Positions 16,641 through 45,800 of a stretch of DNA of 64,000 nt are shown here, one piece after another. The translations under genes were made by a program, and so were the position numbers. Location of the stretch: the NCBI GenBank assembly GCA_964016885.1, contig OZ024742.1, positions 295,430,001 through 295,494,000 of the forward strand. Reading direction: 5' to 3'. Numbering within the stretch: position 1 is the first letter of the stretch; every line of letters starts with the position of its first letter. The notes under the pieces were generated by a model. It was not told the origin of the DNA. It did not search any database and saw only the letters and a program-made list of their open reading frames with translations. The stretch is from Eledone cirrhosa (lineage: Eukaryota).

Positions 16641-16727
16641 ATATATTAGTAAAAAGGAAAAGAAAATGCTGACAGATTTTTTCCAGTGAAAAATAGTTTA
16701 ATTAGGAATAAGTATAAGTTAGTAATA

Positions 16728-16925
16728 AGTAATTGTTTCTACTTTTTGGCACAAGGCGAGCAATTACCCAGTACATTACTGGTACTTTATTTTATCGACC
16801 CCGTAAGGATGAAAGGCAAAGTTAACCTCGGCGGGATTTGAAATCAGAATGGCAAAGGCCGTAACTCTATGTGTCAAAGCATGGCGTCCAAACCTCTACC
16901 GGTACTGCCAATTCACTGCCCTAAG
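16728..16925 (-). mobile_element. tRNA-derived SINE family 2, near full length
   Basis: Head ggcagtgaattggcag, B-box-like atttcaaatcc, core gcctttcatcc..ggggtcgataaaataaagtacc, tail ccttgtgccaaaaagtgagaaacaatta. Confidence 0.7.
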
Positions 16926-16967
16926 TTAGTAATAAGTAATGGTTAGTATTCAGTGTTAGTTTTAAGT

Positions 16968-17003
16968 TTTTACCGGTTGCGCATTTCAAATGCTTTTCAA
17001 AAA
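16968..17003 (-). ncRNA. Minimal type-I hammerhead, U3-A8 variant, probably inactive (A13C)
   Basis: ttt TTGAAAA gcatt-tga-aatgc GCAA ccgg TA aaa, downstream of and sense to the PLE ORF. Confidence 0.5.
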
Positions 17004-17299
17004 TAATTTTGAGATAGAGCGTTCGTGATTTGGTTGGTTGTTGAATGTCACGTGAATAAGCACTATAATTTTGATTGGTCGGTAGAAGTCACGTGAATGT
17101 TCAATAATAAAAGAGGTGAAATGATGTATAGTATTGTCATAACACTCAAGGTGTGTGTGTGTCCAGATTGTACATACTGCAAGGGAATCCATTAGGCCCT
17201 GCCGTATGGGATACTTGTGGATAGAAATGTATGTAGGATGTATGTTGATGTAGGTATGTATGTGGACGTGTGTATGTTGTGGGTTCGTCTTAGAGAGAA

Positions 17300-17900
17300 G
17301 TGTTTAGACAGGGTCCGTATTTGTTAATAAAGTGAGATTCCTTGCTGATGCACTGGGTGTGGATGGCATTATCTTAAAATTTTTAGAGGGGAAAGATTCT
17401 AAAGTTGGGATGATTTTGGGCGGCACAGGTATCAATGTGTTCACTCAGTGGTATTTTCCTGTATTCCCGTATTTTGATTTGGGATCTATGGACAGTCATG
17501 CGTTGGCGGAGACTGTTCTTAATCTCGCCTATGTATTGTTCTCAACAACCTGAGCAAGTTAATACATATATTAGGTTTTCTGATGCGCATGTGAAATTGT
17601 GTTTTACTATAAAACGTTGTCCCTGTTTGAAATAGAATTCCGAACCCTCTATTAGGTTGATGCATATGCCACAGTTGGGTCTATCACATTTTTTTACTGT
17701 GGGTTTCATTGTTGTGGTTGGCAGTACCTTGGCATGTGTTAGGATGTTTTTCATTGACTTAGATTGTCTTTTGCTCTTTATGATATCGTGTGTTCGAAGG
17801 ATTTGGTTCATTCTATGGTCCTTTTTCAACACAGGGATGTTCTGGAGGATGGTGTCAAAGGCCTCATTGTTGAGCAGTTGTGTGTGGAGATGTATGGAAG
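17300..17900 (-). pseudogene. Penelope-like element GIY-YIG endonuclease, 5'-truncated
   Basis: C..PNCGIC...FTCASENLIYVLTCSGC*EQYIGE..LRQRMTVHRSQI...H...KESHFINKYGPCLN. Confidence 0.88.
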
Positions 17901-17912
17901 AGCTTTTAGTAC

Positions 17913-17981
17913 AATATATATATATGTATATATATATTATGTATATATATATATATATATATTATGTATATATATATATAT

Positions 17982-20221: not shown

Positions 20222-20265
20222 TATATATATATATTATGTAATATTTATTAAAATAACAGATTAAA

Positions 20266-20314
20266 GTTTAAGCAAAGAATCGCTGCTTTCACCCTTAACG
20301 GGATCTCCTGAAAC
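20266..20314 (-). ncRNA. Hammerhead-like motif, CAG-core family (additional A6G)
   Basis: gttt CAGGAGA t-ccc-gttaa-ggg-t GAAA gca-gcgattctt-tgc TT aaac. Confidence 0.55.
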
Positions 20315-20599
20315 TAACAAAGTCAATCTGTAAACGCAGAACTGGATATTTCAAAAAACGTTGCAACCGGAGGAAGACAAGAAGACGATACTTTGGTTCG
20401 TGGTAACGTTCGCTGGCAAAGAACGGGAAAAAACGAATAATACGTCATTAATAGGAGCGGTGAAAAACAATTACGCGCAAAGACAAAACCACGTTTATGG
20501 TATAAAAGAGGTCGTAGACTAATGTTCTCTTAGGTGGTGCATAGAGACGTTCTCTGGCAATGAACGAAAAAACGAAGATAATAAGTCATATGTGGAGCG

Positions 20600-21196
20600 T
20601 TTCCCCCTACACATAAATATAGTAAAATTTTTAATAGAAATACTATTAAAATTTCTTACTCTACGACTCCTAACCTTGCACATAACATCACAGCTTCAAA
20701 TTTAGCTAAACTACCTAGCCGTAGGAACACGTGCAACCCTGTAGTTAGTACTAACTGTAATTGTAGGAATCGGGCTGATTGCCCCCTATCCGGGAAATGC
20801 CTCTCTAGTAACATTGTCTACAAATGTAAGGTTGTAACACCCACGTCCCGTAGGGCCTACATAGGGTTAACCGCCAATAGTTTCAAGCAGCGTCTTTACA
20901 TGCATACCCATTCTTTTCGTTACCCTCTAAGAAGGAATATGACGTCACTTTCAGCTTATATCTGGAGTCTAAAAGACAACCACACCCAATATAAGTTACA
21001 CTGGGAGATCCTAGCTAGGGCTAGATCGTATAACGGAAATAAAAGACCATGTGACCTCTGCGCCGCTGAGGCCCTGGAAATACTCTACGCTACAGACCAC
21101 ATCTTAAACAAAAAATCGGAGGCAATTTCGGCTTGTAAACATAAATTGCACAAAACTTTCCTGTATTACAGCCCCACATTATACCCTAACGGATAG
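20600..21196 (+). CDS. PLE C-terminal linker plus GIY-YIG endonuclease (5'-truncated, frame open)
   Basis: FPPTHKYSKIFNRNTIKISYS..CNCRNRADCPLSGKCL..IVYKC..AYIGLTANSFKQRLYMH..LSAYIWSLK..CDLC..LNKKSE..CKH. Confidence 0.9.
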   Translation, partial: FPPTHKYSKIFNRNTIKISYSTTPNLAHNITASNLAKLPSRRNTCNPVVSTNCNCRNRADCPLSGKCLSSNIVYKCKVVTPTSRRAYIGLTANSFKQRLYMHTHSFRYPLRRNMTSLSAYIWSLKDNHTQYKLHWEILARARSYNGNKRPCDLCAAEALEILYATDHILNKKSEAISACKHKLHKTFLYYSPTLYPNG

Positions 21197-22125
21197 CACG
21201 ATCTATACGTGGATATTTTACGTCTTGATGTGGGAGCTAAGTATATGTTTTGTTTATTCCTTTACTTATTTGCATAGGTAAGTATATATTACCCGTATGT
21301 TTTGTGAAGGTATGTATACCTTCTCGTACGTATATTTGACTGTTATAGCGTATAATTTTTACATATCCTGGTATTTAGGGTTTGGCTATGTGTATACGGG
21401 AGTTTTGCGTCCGCGTGAGTGTGCAGGTTCGTACGTATGGTGTGTGTGTGTATATGTGTACTTCTTGTTTTAGTTGACTTTCGTCTCCGAACATGCGTGT
21501 ATTTATATGTAGGTATGCGTGTGCGCTTGTTATATACGTATTTATTTACTTATATACGTTTATATAATTATTTATTTATTTATACACAAGCATACACACA
21601 CACACATATTTATATGTGCGTGGTTTTGTATACCCATGGTAAGGTTTTGCGTATGCTTGTGTATGTACGTATCTGTTTGCGTGTATGTATTTATTTGTTT
21701 CTATTACTTCTGTATTGTATTTATTTACTTTGTTCTTAACTCTGTAGCGGAGATTTATTTGGTCTCCTAGTTAGAATTTTAGTCTACGATTTCTGCTATA
21801 CCATTTACGTTGTTTTGTCTTTGCGTGCTATTGTTCTCTACGCTCCACATATGACTTATTATCTTCGTTTTTTCGTTCATTGCCAGAGAACGTCTCTATG
21901 CACCACCTAAGAGAACATTAGTCTACGACCTCTTTTATACCATAAACGTGGTTTTGTCTTTGCGCGTAATTGTTTTTCACCGCTCCTATTAATGACGTAT
22001 TATTCGTTTTTCCCCGTTCTTTGCCAGCGAACGTTACCACGAACCAAAGTATCGTCTTTCTGTCTTCCTCCGGTTGCAACGTTTTTTGAAATATCCAGTT
22101 CTGCGTTTACAGATTGACTTTGTTA

Positions 22126-22174
22126 GTTTCAGAAGATCCCGTTAAGGGTGAAAGCAGCGATTCTTTGCCTAAAC
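22126..22174 (+). ncRNA. Hammerhead-like motif, CAG-core family (additional U16.1C)
   Basis: gttt CAGAAGA t-ccc-gttaa-ggg-t GAAA gca..tgc CT aaac. Confidence 0.55.
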
Positions 22175-22301
22175 TTTAATCTGTTATTTTAATAAATATT
22201 TGCTCTACGGTTTTATATATTTGATATATATTTTCCTTATCGAGCCCTCTTTGGATTTTAGTCTTCAATTTTATTATTATTACTATATTATGTAATATAT
22301 A

Positions 22302-22359
<58 letters not shown>

Positions 22360-22479
22360 TATAGACATAGAATATTCGAAAATATTCTGTATGTTTATAA
22401 TAAACATTTTGAAGACCTAATCGCTATAGAATAGAATACGTCACGTATTACAATTAGATTCTCGATAAAAGCAAGGGAA

Positions 22480-23142
22480 GTAATCTACGCGTTTCATTCT
22501 TGTTAGAATTCATCAGGACTACATATCCAGTGCTTTTATCGAGAATGACACAGCTAGAGACTTATAGAATACTTAGCTGTGTACAGGAACTGGTTTGAAA
22601 GAGCGGTTGCCGGTCCGGCAGAAATTAGAAATTGGAATAAATGCTCTGAAATAGCGATATATATGTGAATATAGACATAGAATATTCGAAAATATTCTGT
22701 ATGTTTATAATAAACATTTTGAAGACCTAATCGCTATAGAATAGAATACGTCACGTATTACAATTAGATTCTCGATAAAAGCAAGGGAAGTAATCTACGC
22801 GTTTCATTCTTGTTAGAATTCATCAGGACTACATATCCAGTGCTTTTATCGAGAATGACACAGCTAGAGACTTATAGAATACTTAGCTGTGTACAGGAAC
22901 TGGTTTGAAAGAGCGGTTGCCGGTCCGGCAGAAATTAGAAATTGGAATAAATGCTCTGAAATAGCGATATATATGTGAATATAGACATAGAATATTCGAA
23001 AATATTCTGTATGTTTATAATAAACATTTTGAAGACCTAATCGCTATAGAATAGAATACGTCACGTATTACAATTAGATTCTCGATAAAAGCAAGGGAAG
23101 TAATCTACGCGTTTCATTCTTGTTAGAATTCATCAGGACTAC
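22480..23142 (-). ncRNA. Three type-I hammerhead ribozymes (22480-22522, 22790-22832, 23100-23142)
   Basis: Reverse complements of the 23591-23633 motif. Confidence 0.88.
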
Positions 23143-23590
23143 ATATCCAGTGCTTTTATCGAGAATGACACAGCTAGAGACTTATAGAATACTTAGCTGT
23201 GTACAGGAACTGGTTTGAAAGAGCGGTTGCCGGTCCGGCAGAAATTAGAAATTGGAATAAATGCTCTGAAATAGCGATATATATGTGAATATAGACATAG
23301 AATATTCGAAAATATTCTGTGTTAGAAATTGGAATAAATGCTCTGAAATAGCGATATATATGTGAATATAGACATAGAATATTCGAGTCTTCAAAATGTT
23401 TATTATAAACATACAGAATATTTTCGAATATTCTATGTCTATATTCACATATATATCGCTATTTCAGAGCATTTATTCCAATTTCTAATTTCTGCCGGAC
23501 CGGCAACCGCTCTTTCAAACCAGTTCCTGTACACAGCTAAGTATTCTATAAGTCTCTAGCTGTGTCATTCTCGATAAAAGCACTGGATAT

Positions 23591-23633
23591 GTAGTCCTGA
23601 TGAATTCTAACAAGAATGAAACGCGTAGATTAC
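23591..23633 (+). ncRNA. Type-I hammerhead ribozyme (canonical core)
   Basis: gtagtc CTGATGA attct-aaca-agaat GAAA cgcg TA gattac. 6-bp helix I (one G-U), 5-bp helix II, palindromic ACGCGT helix III, GUA site. Confidence 0.9.
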
Positions 23634-23900
23634 TTCCCTTGCTTTTATCGAGAATCTAATTGTAATACGTGACGTATTCTATTCTATAGCGATTAGGTCT
23701 TCAAAATGTTTATTATAAACATACAGAATATTTTCGAATATTCTATGTCTATATTCACATATATATCGCTATTTCAGAGCATTTATTCCAATTTCTAATT
23801 TCTGCCGGACCGGCAACCGCTCTTTCAAACCAGTTCCTGTACACAGCTAAGTATTCTATAAGTCTCTAGCTGTGTCATTCTCGATAAAAGCACTGGATAT

Positions 23901-23943
23901 GTAGTCCTGATGAATTCTAACAAGAATGAAACGCGTAGATTAC
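23901..23943 (+). ncRNA. Type-I hammerhead ribozyme (second plus-strand copy)
   Basis: Identical to 23591-23633. Confidence 0.9.
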
Positions 23944-24139
23944 TTCCCTTGCTTTTATCGAGAATCTAATTGTAATACGTGACGTATTCTATTCTATAGC
24001 GATTAGGTCTTCAAAATGTTTATTATAAACATACAGAATATTTTCGAATATTCTATGTCTATATTCACATATATATCGCTATTTCAGAGCATTTATTCCA
24101 ATATATATATATATATTATGTGTATATATATATATATAT

Positions 24140-24243
<104 letters not shown>

Positions 24244-24414
24244 GTGTATATATATATATATATATATAATGTGTATATATATATTATGTATATATATATA
24301 TAATGTGTATATATATATTATGTATATATATTATGTATATATATATTATGTATATATATATTATGTATATGTATATATATATATATATATATTATGTATA
24401 TGTATATATATACA

Positions 24415-24792: not shown

Positions 24793-24840
<48 letters not shown>

Positions 24841-24871
24841 TATTGAAGTTTGCTTGAAGCATTGTGGAACA

Positions 24872-25454
24872 ATAAGTAAATATTTATAAGTCGTTTGGAA
24901 GCCTCGACAATGCAAATGGGTAAATCTCCGGGTAACAAGGTCCGGTGGTGGAGAGAGAGATATGTAAGGGGGTGTACGTTGAGATGCGTGGTGTGTATAA
25001 GATGTGTGAGATGTGTAGAATGAAGGGAAGAGTAAAAGAATAAAAAGAATAATAACAACACAAGAGAGAGAGTGTTACCTTGGGAGAGATTTAATAGTCC
25101 CTATATATTTCGGATTCACATCCATCAACTGGGGTTTTTTCCGGGGTGGGGGAAAAGGTTGTCTGTCGGACAACTTGGAACGCGTCTTTCGCTGTCTGTT
25201 GATTTGAATATCTTTCAAATCAACAGACAGCGAAAGACTATTAAATCTCTCCCAAGGTAACACTCTCTCTCTTGTGTTGTTATTATTATTTTTATTCTTT
25301 TACTCTTCCCTTCATTCTACACATCTTATACACACCACGCATCTCAACGTACACCCACTTACATATCTCTCTCTCCACCACCGGACCTTGTTACCCGGAG
25401 ATTTACCCATTTGCATTGTCGAGGCTTCCAAACGACTTATAAATATTTACTTAT
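24872..25454. repeat. Nested foldback: ~220-bp inverted arms (24872-25099 and 25236-25454) with an internal 25-bp hairpin
   Basis: Arms are reverse complements apart from a 9-bp indel. Hairpin at 25184-25238. Confidence 0.92.
25099..25134 (-). ncRNA. Degenerate hammerhead-like motif
   Basis: ccc CAGTTGA t ggat-gtga-atcc GAAA tata TA ggg. Helices intact, two core deviations. Confidence 0.5.
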
Positions 25455-37289: not shown

Positions 37290-37600
37290 TTCTACAGCTG
37301 GCTACCCTTTTTAATGTCAACCACTTTACAGAAAACACTGGGTGTATTTATCATGGCACCAGTACTGGAGGGGTTGGCTACCCTTTTTAATGTCAACCAC
37401 TTTACAGAAAACACTGGGTGTATTTATCATGGCACCAGTACTGGAGGGGTTGGCTACCCTTCTTAATGTCAACCAGTTTACAGAAAACACTGGGTGTATT
37501 TATCATGGCACCAGTACTGGAGGGATTGGCTACCCTTCTTAATGTCAACCAGTTTACAGAAAGTACTGAGTGTATTTATCATGGTACCATTACTAGAGAG
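37290..37600. repeat. 76-bp minisatellite (~4 units) derived from SINE/RTE UTR sequence
   Basis: Unit gctaccctt..taatgtcaaccactttacagaaaacactgggtgtatttatcatggcaccagtactggagggg. Confidence 0.9.
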
Positions 37601-37787
37601 GTTAACTTGTCTTTGGTGCAACTGAAGAAATGGTTTTCACAGCAGAATGTAACTAAGCTGTCAGGGTGGAATGAAGTATTTTCTTGATATCAAGGTAATA
37701 GAAATTATTGTATATAACTAAGTGAATAAATTATGATATCATCCATGTCAACATCCTTTTTACATATGTGTTTCCATGCTGGTATGA

Positions 37788-38030
37788 TATGTTTATCACA
37801 GCCTGTATATTTTAATATCATATTTATCACAGCTTGTATATTTTAATATCATGTTTATCACAGCCTGTATATTTTAATATCATATTTATCACAGCCTGTA
37901 TATTTTAATATCATGTTTATCACAGCCTGTATATTTTAGTATCATGTTTATCACAGCCTGTATATTTTGATACCTTGTTTATCACAATCAATATATTTTG
38001 AAATAATATTTATATCATGTTTATCACAAA
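37788..38030. repeat. 31-bp minisatellite (~7 units)
   Basis: Unit gtttatcacagcctgtatattttaatatcat. Confidence 0.9.
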
Positions 38031-42344: not shown

Positions 42345-42870
42345 ATTAAGTGGTAGTGCTAGAGTCATAATAAAATGCACCCACTACACTCTGTAAAGTG
42401 GTAGTGCTAGGGACCTGATAAAATGGACTCACTACACTCTGTAAAGTGGTAGTGCTAGGGGCCTTATAAAATGTTAGTACCACAATAAAATAAACTCAGT
42501 ACAAACTTTAAAGTGTTATACAAACTTTAAAGTGTTAGTGCTTGTTACACAATAAAATATACCCACTACATTCTGTAAAGTGTTACTGCTACAATAAAAT
42601 ATACTCAGTACACTCAATAAAGTGTTAGTGTCAGTGCTGTAGTAAAATGCACCTAGTACGCTCTATAATCTGTTAGTGCTAATGCCATTCTAAAATGTAC
42701 CTAATACACTCTATAAAGTGGCAGTACTAGTTCCACAATAACATGCACCCAGTTCATGCTGTAAAGTGGTAGTACTGATGCCATGGTAAAATTCACTCAG
42801 CACATTTTTAAATGTGGTAGTGTTGTTGCCATGATAAAAGGCACCTAATACACTCTGTAAAGTAATTAGT
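42345..42870. repeat. Degenerate ~38-bp minisatellite (UTR unit gcacccag.acactgtaaagtggt)
   Basis: About a dozen decayed units. Related arrays at 49370-49545 and 56150-56345. Confidence 0.8.
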
Positions 42871-45800
42871 GTAGAAATCATGCAAAATGATGACATGTAT
42901 GAGCAAGATGGTATCCTACTGACCTGTCAAGCCTTGGACAATGACAACCTGGCTAACACATGTCAACAGAAAACAAACGTAAGATGATGATGATGAAGGA
43001 GAACATAAACTATTGTTTCTAATTTAGGCACAAGGCCATGGAAGCTGCGTAAAGATTAAACAACAAAAACGTCAAACTGTTTTACAGCTTCCCTTGTTTC
43101 CTTTTTCGTTTCCCTATGCATAATCTGCCTCCCATTGGCCTTCAATATTTGAAATTTTTAAAAAATTTTATTTTTTTCCCTTTATTTAAAATTATTTTTC
43201 TAGTTTATTACTTGTCTCACTAGCTCTTTCTGATTACCAACTGTAAGGAGTACTCATTACTCCCCCTAGTTTGCCATGGCTTACTAGCTTTAGACAGACG
43301 TTTAAATTGAATAAATAAATATTATAGATAAATAGGGAGAGGGGAAAGTCAATTAAAACAGACCCAGTATTTAAAGAAAGTTAAGGAAAGAACCTGATTG
43401 TCAGATTGGACCAATGAAATTATGTTCCTGTAGCTTTTTCAATTGCTGAAATTATCTGCCAGTTGTAACTCCTGATTGATGGGATTTGAACTCAGAATAC
43501 ATACACAGGACTTGAACAGATACCACAATGGTTTCTTAGTAAAATGACTCTTTAACAATTCTGTAAATTCTTGGACTGGTACTTTATCTATTATTTTGTT
43601 CGATATGAAAATTCCGCCAATCCAACAAAATAAATCAATTTAAGTTAGATTGATAGCTTTGAAAATTTAGCTATTTGATTCAAATGATTTCTGTAGAACA
43701 ATTAACGAATGATATTAATAAATGAATTATATGACTATTATCATTTAAAATGATTGTATTTAAATGAGCAAAGCTAAGATATAATACAAAAAGAATAACA
43801 AAGCTAATGAAGTTCTATTTTAATCATTGATGTAACTTAGTGTGATGTAAATCTAATTAATGAAATTTAATAATTGTTGTTATCTAAATATTATCATCAT
43901 CATCATTTTATGTTTGCTTTCCATGCTGGCATGGTTTGGGCAGGTTATCATGGTCCAAAACTAAACAGGTTGGAGTGACTTCCTCTCACTCATATGTTCC
44001 ATGTTTGGCTTGAATTTTACAGCTGGATGTCAGTTCTAACATGAACAACATTACAAAATGTACTGGGTGTGTTTTTTTCCACTATCACTTTATAGAGTGG
44101 ACTGGGTGCATTTTAGATAGGCTCCAGCACTTGAGGAATTGTTACATGCTTGTCCAAACTGAAGAGTCTTCTCAGGCTCTATATTATCTTTGTTCAATCA
44201 CCAAACACTATAACTTTTAGCCTCTCATGTTTAGTATTGCAGTATTTTTACTGGTCTTTTGTATAATACCAAACAACTCATTCACCAGTACAAGCACTTT
44301 GGTACTAAATGTAAACGTGGTGAGACTGAAGGCTACAGTGTTTGGTGATTGAATAGAGACTGTGTATATTCTCAGGGGACTCCTCAGTCTATTTTAACAT
44401 ATCTAATGTTGATACAGTTAATGATATATAACACAAGCATCTTATAACCATTTTCCCTTGCAGGCTCCATGACATGGGGATCATTTTTGAAGCAAAGTTT
44501 TATAGCCAAATGTGCCTATTCTAAGCCAGTAACATTGATTGATACAATGAGAAAATAAATAAATCCTCACAAACCTCTCACACATCCTAAATGCTACAAC
44601 AAAGATGGAGAATGTATACCTGAACAGAATAAGATTACTATTACTATTAATTCTAGAAAATTGGGTAGGCTAATTTGCATATATAAGGATAGGAGCAGAT
44701 TTGATCAAGGACACACTGTTTCTATTCATCTTTTTATTACTGACACTACCTGCTGGTCACAACTCCTGGCACAATCTGAACTCAGAATGCACAGTTCAAT
44801 TCTTTAATAATTCCGTCTAGTCTGGTACTTTATTTATTAATCTCAAAAGGATGAAAAGCAAGGTTAATGTCAGCAGAATTTGAACCCAAACTGTAGTGAA
44901 TCAGAACAAACACAGAGGCACCTAATTTGATGCCCCAAAGACTGTCAATTTGCATATATAATTCATTCTTTTCCTGTCTACAGTGTTTGTTGAAATCTAT
45001 AGATATACAGTTTAACATTAACAGATGTAATATGACTCAATCATTTCTTTATATTTTCTAAATATATGAATTAGATTTAGAATTATAATTTTATAACTAT
45101 TTTCCCATCATTAACATGGGTTGGATGAAGTTTATTTTGGTTTCATAGTCGTGAAGTGATTGAGAATTCAAGGCTTCCCTTTTGGACAGGATGTTTGTCT
45201 GATGCAGTGCTCCTTGACATGGAGTACTTTTAAAGCAATGTTTTGCAGATGTCCTTTCTGATGCCAACCCTATTAATCACCTCTTACAATATGCACGGAT
45301 ACATTGTACTTATTCTAAACCAGATATCATACATGCAACATTAACTTAGAACTAATTATAAAATCATTTTCCTTAATTTAGATACTGCGTAGTTAATTCT
45401 TGTCAGTATAAATAAATATAAAAAAGTATCTTTAAATTTTCAATTAAAAAACAAAATACTATTCATAATTGGTAACATAATTCTTTTCACAGAAAAAATC
45501 TTTTAAAGTTTTGTGTGCATTTTTACTTTATTAATCAAACAATTATCAGATATAAAATTATTCCAAAATATATGAGTTAGATGCATGAACTAACAGAAAG
45601 ATTAAAGAAAAGAGACTTCAATTTAGCAGTAATCTTTGGAATTATAAAATGAATGTTTCCATAAAAAAGACAAAAGAAAGGAACCATAATTGTTTTTTTT
45701 TAATGGCAAATCTTTAACAGTAATTTTTGAGAGCAAAATGTCAAATGAACAATCCTAAAAAAATTAAATAAATAAATAAAATAGAAATAAAGAAAAGTAT

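Follow-up and report, generated by a model that had tools for sequence, protein, structure and literature searches.

Introduction

Non-LTR retrozymes of metazoans, as described for coral, mussel and axolotl, are tandem arrays of units of a few hundred nucleotides, low in GC, with one type-I hammerhead per unit, no open reading frame and thousands of copies (PMC7229834). The canonical metazoan type-I hammerhead combines the core CUGANGA/GAAA/NUH with a helix I of 6 bp, a helix II of 4–5 bp and a helix III of 1–2 bp that bears a palindromic loop; it is reported to require a dimer for efficient cleavage and to be a poor cleaver when alone in a circle (PMC4209133). The axolotl HHR_Amex1, with one helix III pair and a palindromic tetraloop, likewise cleaves well only as a dimer, and circRNA templates with Penelope-like elements (PLEs) as mobilisers have been proposed for the metazoan retrozymes (PMC7229834). 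A recent preprint on vertebrate non-LTR retrozymes draws its PLE link from co-occurrence and pLTR homology and favours local amplification of the arrays (Li, Clavereau, Pollet 2026, 10.64898/2026.07.22.740005).

PLE insertions are characterized by an inverted 5'-truncated copy, a one-sided tail of 30–40 bp and (TA)n targets (PMC8557442, PMC3846280; the tail also in PMC11167929). Purified PAc extends both strands and starts internally on its RNA at two sites that bound the tail; in vitro it uses uncleaved RNA and does not need the ribozyme (PMC11167929). Retrozyme integration, and the inverted copy and one-sided tail of PLEs, are stated as open questions in this literature (PMC7229834, PMC8557442, PMC11167929). 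Here we describe a locus of Eledone cirrhosa, and the family to which it belongs, in which the two subjects meet.

Architecture of the locus

The window is the whole 64,000-nt stretch of DNA analysed here, and positions refer to it. TRF reports a period of 310 at 22347–23320 (3.1 copies) and again at 23387–24102 (2.3 copies, 100%), and k-mer mapping reveals one common unit in both arms, read on the minus strand in the left arm and on the plus strand in the right arm. The initial annotation of a 310-bp array that inverts midway, with ribozymes on both strands and about three minus and 2.3 plus units that appeared identical, is thereby confirmed: unit copies inside both arms show no difference, and the sole mismatch lies at an outer junction.

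Unit positions are numbered such that 1 is the first base 3' of the GUA cleavage site. The left arm (22347–23320, minus strand, 3.14 units) has its RNA-sense 3' end at position 130, the upstream start site, and its 5' truncation at 96. The right arm (23387–24102, plus strand, 2.31 units) is truncated at position 70 and ends at 165, the downstream start site; the outer ends of the array are found at two different fixed unit positions. The last 35 nt of the right arm (24068–24102, plus strand, unit 131–165) form a tail that is present at the right end only and resembles the 30–40 bp PLE tail. At the centre (23321–23386, minus strand), one untemplated G is followed by an extra 65-bp piece (23322–23386) that runs from unit position 171 back to 107, i.e. 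restarts beside the downstream start site, and joins the right arm blunt. The array is flanked by a (TA)n tract on the left (22284–22356) and a (TA)n-rich tract on the right (24101–24412), as was first noticed. At the left junction (22348–22356), the target (TA)n and unit positions 132–139 share an 8-nt AT microhomology, with the mismatch at position 131, and this arrangement recurs in 39 of 95 such ends. The central piece, the differing fixed outer ends and the 1–2 bp helix III described below are additions to the initial annotation.

The 310-nt unit has a GC content of 34%, and the whole insertion is made of unit sequence without LTRs. In a trimer of the unit, no open stretch exceeds 59 codons, or 30 aa if counted from an ATG, in agreement with the reported lack of an ORF, and no Pol III B box was found in the unit. 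The locus is best read as a very young, non-coding 310-nt hammerhead repeat insertion, i.e. a non-LTR retrozyme; its recent multimeric cDNA origin, also put forward at the outset, is supported.

Some further observations concern the window and public runs. Tandem repeats of 76, 31 and 48 bp at 37299–38013 and 42348–42872 are unrelated to the array. In runs X1, X3 and X6, which carry different organism codes, the unit (window 22454–23987) appears as a single 340-nt contig with a depth of 12–34; this length equals 310 + 30, i.e. a closed loop for 31-letter words. Runs X1 and X3 carry the window allele, which is minor (about 13%) in run X2. Among the sequencing runs listed as containing the unit, none was of RNA, which carries no information on expression.

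The hammerhead motif

A CUGAUGA...GAAA...GUA motif is present in all five complete ribozyme positions of the array, with cores beginning at 23597 and 23907 on the plus strand and at 23136, 22826 and 22516 on the minus strand. The predicted type-I hammerheads span 23569–23653 (core 23597–23603, 14-bp stem I extension, predicted cut 23627/23628) and 23879–23963 (predicted cut 23937/23938) on the plus strand, and 23080–23164, 22770–22854 and 22460–22544 on the minus strand (predicted cuts 23106/23105, 22796/22795 and 22486/22485, respectively). The motif folds as a type-I hammerhead with z = -7.1, and none of 200 shuffles reached equal stability. Helix I has 6 bp, followed by an internal loop and the 14-bp extension, helix II has 5 bp and a 4-nt loop, and helix III has only 1–2 bp with a palindromic loop; pair probabilities are 0.85–1.0, and the palindrome cofolds at -9.5 kcal/mol. 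Core, helices and palindromic loop agree with the canonical metazoan type-I definition (PMC4209133), and helix III matches that of HHR_Amex1 (PMC7229834). In the Rfam check proposed at the outset, Hammerhead_HH9 was the only hammerhead family listed (overlapping clan hits being collapsed), at 23 bits, which is below the gathering score of 52.

The initial annotation also supposed that transcription from either direction would release a monomer and that read-through would give about 700 bp of dsRNA. The latter holds in the folding prediction. The former is not supported: in the folded read-through RNA, both plus-strand and two of the three minus-strand ribozymes are paired into the duplex, and monomers, according to this model, likely need a transcription start inside an arm.

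In the insertions sampled below, none of the 35 array-wide variants falls in the 12 conserved core positions. Array-wide changes cluster at unit positions 1–3 (window 23628–23630), just 3' of the cleavage site, where one-base insertions occur in 9 and A2G in 3 of 96 insertions, and all of them preserve helix I pairing. Each of these changes sits on one background, so that they are not established as ligation scars. Every unit also contains a hairpin with a UUCG loop at positions 99–116 (e.g. 23726–23743, plus strand), just upstream of the upstream start site, which we infer to be a candidate signal for the reverse transcriptase.

A sister retrozyme family of about 320 nt, about 70% identical, gives 2,706 genome-wide matches to one pattern (e.g. 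L139:3819-4391, L231:640-1150, L150:3119-3376 and L093:6950-7267). It uses the same two end sites, mostly has 1–2 units per arm and is older. Its hammerhead has a U3-A8 core, the core pair 3-8 being switched from C-G to U-A, and a longer helix III; other core variants are found in L093 and L242. An alignment of 14 copies has 96% of its cells paired, and half of the 28 pairs (14) have changed on both sides, among them 7 of 13 in the stem I extension and all four in helix II. The hairpin before the upstream start site is retained as well, through compensatory pairs and with GCAA as its loop. Judged from these alignments, the retrozyme structure is under selection and kept by compensatory change, although the sister sequences are related, so that independent compensatory events are few. 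Another hammerhead element with a similar helix II and two opposed arms in (TA)n was seen at L232:6400-7250, L047 and L225.

The genomic family and its insertion layout

One ribozyme allele alone has 3,924 exact copies genome-wide, which bears out the suggestion of a dispersed non-LTR retrozyme. By exact pattern, 980 arms in the genome end precisely at position 165 followed by TA, and none ends at the cleavage site; the insertions total at least 980, or about 1,600 by rough scaling. Besides the window, we analysed 112 regions of contigs C1 and C2, and together these yielded 115 insertions, of which 13 were picked by the ribozyme, 21 by the upstream end and 81 by the downstream end; the counts below refer to this sample, which is confined to contigs C1–C3 and was mostly chosen by one end type. 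A segmental duplicate (L060b, of L060a) and arms <100 bp were left out.

Two arms of at least 100 bp are present in 94 of the 115 insertions and one such arm in 21. Both 3' ends point outward in all 94 two-armed insertions, and all 83 with both ends visible have one end at each site (125–141 and 150–172). The two fixed sites are about 35 nt apart, and the 35-nt tail is one-sided in 83/83. The ribozyme-picked subset alone gives one end per site in 10/10 (p = 0.001). The inversion is therefore the normal product of the family, and a one-off template switch, as first supposed, is not supported; since the two arms differ in the fixed 3' end with which they meet the target, they were likely primed separately. 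The centres differ in every insertion and mostly consist of short microhomology or short insertions, and 5' truncations are not enriched at the cleavage site (5/209 vs 6.7 expected).

Tracts of (TA)n of at least 10 nt adjoin 77/83 left ends and 71/83 right ends. Target-site duplications, which in non-LTR retrozymes exceed 4 bp when present, did not rise over background (8/83 insertions vs 36/400 shuffled pairs), a comparison in which (TA)n hides them; L037 has a 12-bp candidate. At L060 (G000:C1:303206400-303216000), a tiny two-armed insertion of 0.45 + 0.36 units has the usual two ends and was duplicated together with its flanks, 2.4 kb apart.

Relation to Penelope elements

The inverted 5'-truncated copy, the 35-nt one-sided tail, the two-site ends and the (TA)n target of the retrozyme insertions agree with the PLE footprint, making the use of PLE machinery, which the initial annotation had raised, likely. 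A 5'-truncated Hydra-clade PLE, separate from the retrozyme, lies beside the array at 20240–22286 (plus strand, GIY-YIG frame 20585–21196). It has its own inverted arm at 20240–20600 (minus strand), an 87-nt tail and likewise the two-site layout. Its assignment relies on RWR, DKT and CxCx5C motifs; clade calls were made by motifs from PMC8557442, including the Neptune-type linker, and Pfam gave no match for two PLE fragments. The Hydra family has several intact 713-codon frames elsewhere in the genome, of 709 aa when read from the first ATG, and is young, with 150/150 scored matches at 98–100% identity. The neighbour shows a 13–15 bp target duplication at the window locus and a hammerhead-like motif near 22125–22170 with the core CAGAAGA instead of CUGANGA. 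The Hydra end count (139) was left unused, since the window allele may be minor.

Two more PLE families are represented in the window. A young Neptune-like family has 784-codon frames, a 40-nt tail and the two-site layout; no canonical hammerhead was found in it by pattern search, and a fragment lies at 16650–17961. A third family is present as a stump at 24838–25454, likewise in (TA)n, where inversions are nested and the tail measures about 45 nt; it has 2,536 exact matches and a GIY-YIG frame in L225.

The Hydra-clade copy ends at about 22286, i.e. about 70 bp from the array, as originally noted, but kinship is not supported by this proximity. Compared with the Hydra, Neptune-like and third-family loci, the unit gives no match beyond TA-rich noise, and no pLTR homology was found against these three families. 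Adjacency to Hydra elements relative to other TA-targeting elements is not significant (10/211 vs 1/86 ends, p = 0.19). A CCAAT end common to the Neptune-like family was considered as a partner clue and rejected; it is found at the upstream site of that family and at the downstream site of the retrozyme.

A probable single template per insertion

Before variant calling, each arm was trimmed by 35 nt at its 5' end and 16 nt at its 3' end, and 19 insertions of <3 units were left out of the haplotype count. The remaining 96 insertions carry 37 haplotypes. Among the 65 insertions whose arms have at least two units, the haplotype is common to both arms in 62, vs 7.7% across insertions. The rolling-circle template suggested initially is plausible. 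Changes limited to one lap number 136 and those common to a subset of laps 12, from which it follows that the laps arose together. A circular template should place a new change in every lap, and a linear multimer should place it in the same lap of both arms. An array-wide change that is unique within the set was found in 13/65 insertions (one, G35T, recurs in L035 outside the set), and lap-specific changes are mirrored between arms once and non-mirrored 43 times. The cleavage site is crossed by 954 laps, and no indel confined to one lap lies within 5 nt of it; a reverse transcriptase that jumped end to end from one cut monomer to the next is thereby disfavoured.

A few insertions depart from this pattern. 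In L056, C204T occurs in the first lap of both arms and nowhere else, which fits a linear multimer or conversion between arms. In L139, T51A is present in one arm only. In L132, the haplotype switches within an arm and the arms differ in haplotype over most of their length. Block duplications occur in L058 and L108, whose arms exceed 18 units.

The changes also differ in type. Array-wide A>G changes have 19 origins vs 5 for T>C, compared with 10 vs 17 among single-lap changes (Fisher p = 0.004; the 19 were counted by hand, and the marker set of the script gives 17); counted by distinct sites, the excess is not significant (10 vs 5, p = 0.08). The array-wide A>G changes recur in the ribozyme stem, and several backgrounds show them at A276, A20 and A259; of the 10 A>G sites, 8 lie in paired positions. 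ADAR prefers a 5' U. The template may have undergone A-to-I editing, or G-U wobble may have been selected for; both fit and both act on the sense RNA, and selection accounts for the excess as well as editing does. In L114, A276 is found in the first four laps of the position-165 arm and G276 in its later laps and in the whole other arm, as if one molecule had changed between laps and the 165 arm had been the earlier to start; a jump to a second molecule would fit as well. A wider scheme can be sketched only tentatively, as possible and not as probable. A dimeric PLE enzyme that grips both ends of a (TA)n break might start at two sites on one ribozyme-derived circle and copy it by rolling-circle reverse transcription; each insertion would then be a time-ordered tape, in which A-to-I editing of the circle, even between laps as L114 might show, might be written into the genome and drive change in the family.

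Mechanism and alternatives

Our preferred reading, which we hold to be probable, is that two opposed multi-unit arms with two fixed end sites were made in a single insertion, in which a borrowed PLE enzyme opened the (TA)n target and used the two DNA ends to prime several laps of copying on one RNA, which was probably a circular monomer. Its parts differ in strength: double priming by a PLE enzyme is very likely, and a circular template is reasonably well favoured. A multimeric transcript would self-cleave as a double hammerhead, with the palindromic helix III pairing between neighbouring units, and the cleaved monomer would be ligated into a circle. We propose that this circle, cleaving poorly alone, would survive many laps. 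A PLE-like enzyme would cut the (TA)n target, and both DNA ends would prime cDNA on one RNA, one of them at position 165 via 1–2 nt of homology and the other annealing through its AT end at 132–139. Both cDNAs would stop at random and be joined at the centre by microhomology or short jumps. Counting against this reading, PAc did not need its ribozyme in vitro (PMC11167929), and 8/9 Xenopus retrozyme dimers showed no cleavage (preprint 10.64898/2026.07.22.740005).

The same double priming could act on a linear, uncleaved multimer from an older array, with both start sites in its last unit and the ribozyme a passenger or acting elsewhere. We consider this unlikely, though it has several points on its side. 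PAc inserts unprocessed RNA in vitro (PMC11167929), and helix III is weak; moreover, L056 has its change where a linear multimer would place it, and parent arrays of mixed composition could have given rise to L132 and L114. Against it, the mirrored one-lap changes that it predicts were seen 1 vs 43 times, unique array-wide changes are present in a fifth of the 65 insertions, and the 37 whole-array haplotypes would need repeated single-unit bottlenecks. It is more doubtful still that a short PLE-type insertion, with 1–2 units in each arm, later expanded locally in tandem by unequal crossover or slippage. This route is proposed in the Discussion of the same preprint (10.64898/2026.07.22.740005), and the block duplications in L058 and L108 and the arm-specific change in L139 speak for it; however, local growth predicts changes shared by subsets of laps, which are far outnumbered by singletons (12 vs 136), divergence does not rise with array length (rho = -0.28, 61 insertions), 26 of these 61 insertions have no single-lap change at all, and 151 of 198 complete arms already have at least two units.

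Single priming followed by fold-back, by template switch or by self-priming on antisense RNA would make the second arm a mirror of the first. A self-priming model exists for PLE palindromes (PMC3846280), and 14 of 94 centres are near mirror-symmetric, but 10.3 such centres are expected by permutation (p = 0.14). In addition, the two arms meet the target with different fixed ends, neither arm is consistently the longer one (the position-165 arm is so in 34/57), and the L132 arms differ in haplotype, all of which makes this route very improbable. The thought that the array or its inversion is an assembly artefact arises from the perfect identity of the units, from the difficulty of assembling palindromes and from a read-based look at the central junctions of this locus: among the contigs listed from three runs of one sample, none bridges either junction at 23270–23440 with 31 nt on both sides. 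Yet each insertion has its own centre and unique flanks, haplotypes differ between loci, and contigs of a public run contain 15 different minus-arm/plus-arm joints; we give an artefact hardly any credence.

Comparison with known systems

In L1 twin priming, the second target end primes inside the RNA and produces an inversion with outward 3' ends, the two pieces being non-overlapping parts of one linear RNA. In contrast, both retrozyme arms cover the same sequence many times. An L1-like, non-overlapping form of twin priming was rejected for this family: the first arm stops near the second start site in 9/92 cases vs 7.7 expected.

The family resembles the retrozymes of coral, mussel and axolotl in its tandem units, low GC, single type-I hammerhead per unit, lack of an ORF and thousands of copies. 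The main text of PMC7229834 describes no inverted arrays, fixed start sites, tail or microsatellite target; expression and cleavage were demonstrated there, whereas here the footprint and the single-template pattern are read from the insertions. The vertebrate non-LTR retrozymes are of the same class and also have a PLE link, but our data lack the pLTR homology in the three PLE families compared and favour arrays made in one step, and the words 'tail' and 'inversion' do not occur in the text of that preprint (10.64898/2026.07.22.740005). Endonuclease-bearing PLEs share with our family the inverted copy, the tail, the (TA)n target, two internal starts and extension of both strands (PMC8557442, PMC3846280, PMC11167929); unlike them, the retrozyme has no RT-EN frame, and a single short unit is repeated in both of its arms. 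Head-to-tail multicopies are also formed by non-autonomous Chlamys elements such as MRC1, but these have 3' sequence in common with their partners.

The retrozyme class is known, and its mobilization by PLEs has already been proposed, without insertion-level evidence in the texts concerned (PMC7229834, 10.64898/2026.07.22.740005). What appears to be new here is the two-armed, two-site, single-template layout: no description of an inverted or tailed retrozyme array was found in our literature searches, which covered the main texts of openly accessible papers.

Implications

More than a thousand young insertions that arose independently are available in this family, with start sites that are fixed and haplotypes that can be read for each insertion. 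Its 310-nt non-coding unit could serve in vitro as a substrate for the products of intact PLE frames of the same genome. If the template was indeed a circle, these insertions would be a genomic record of rolling-circle reverse transcription in an animal and would point to a compact route to target-primed insertion from circular RNA. In the genome itself, the arrays seed long palindromes and potential dsRNA.
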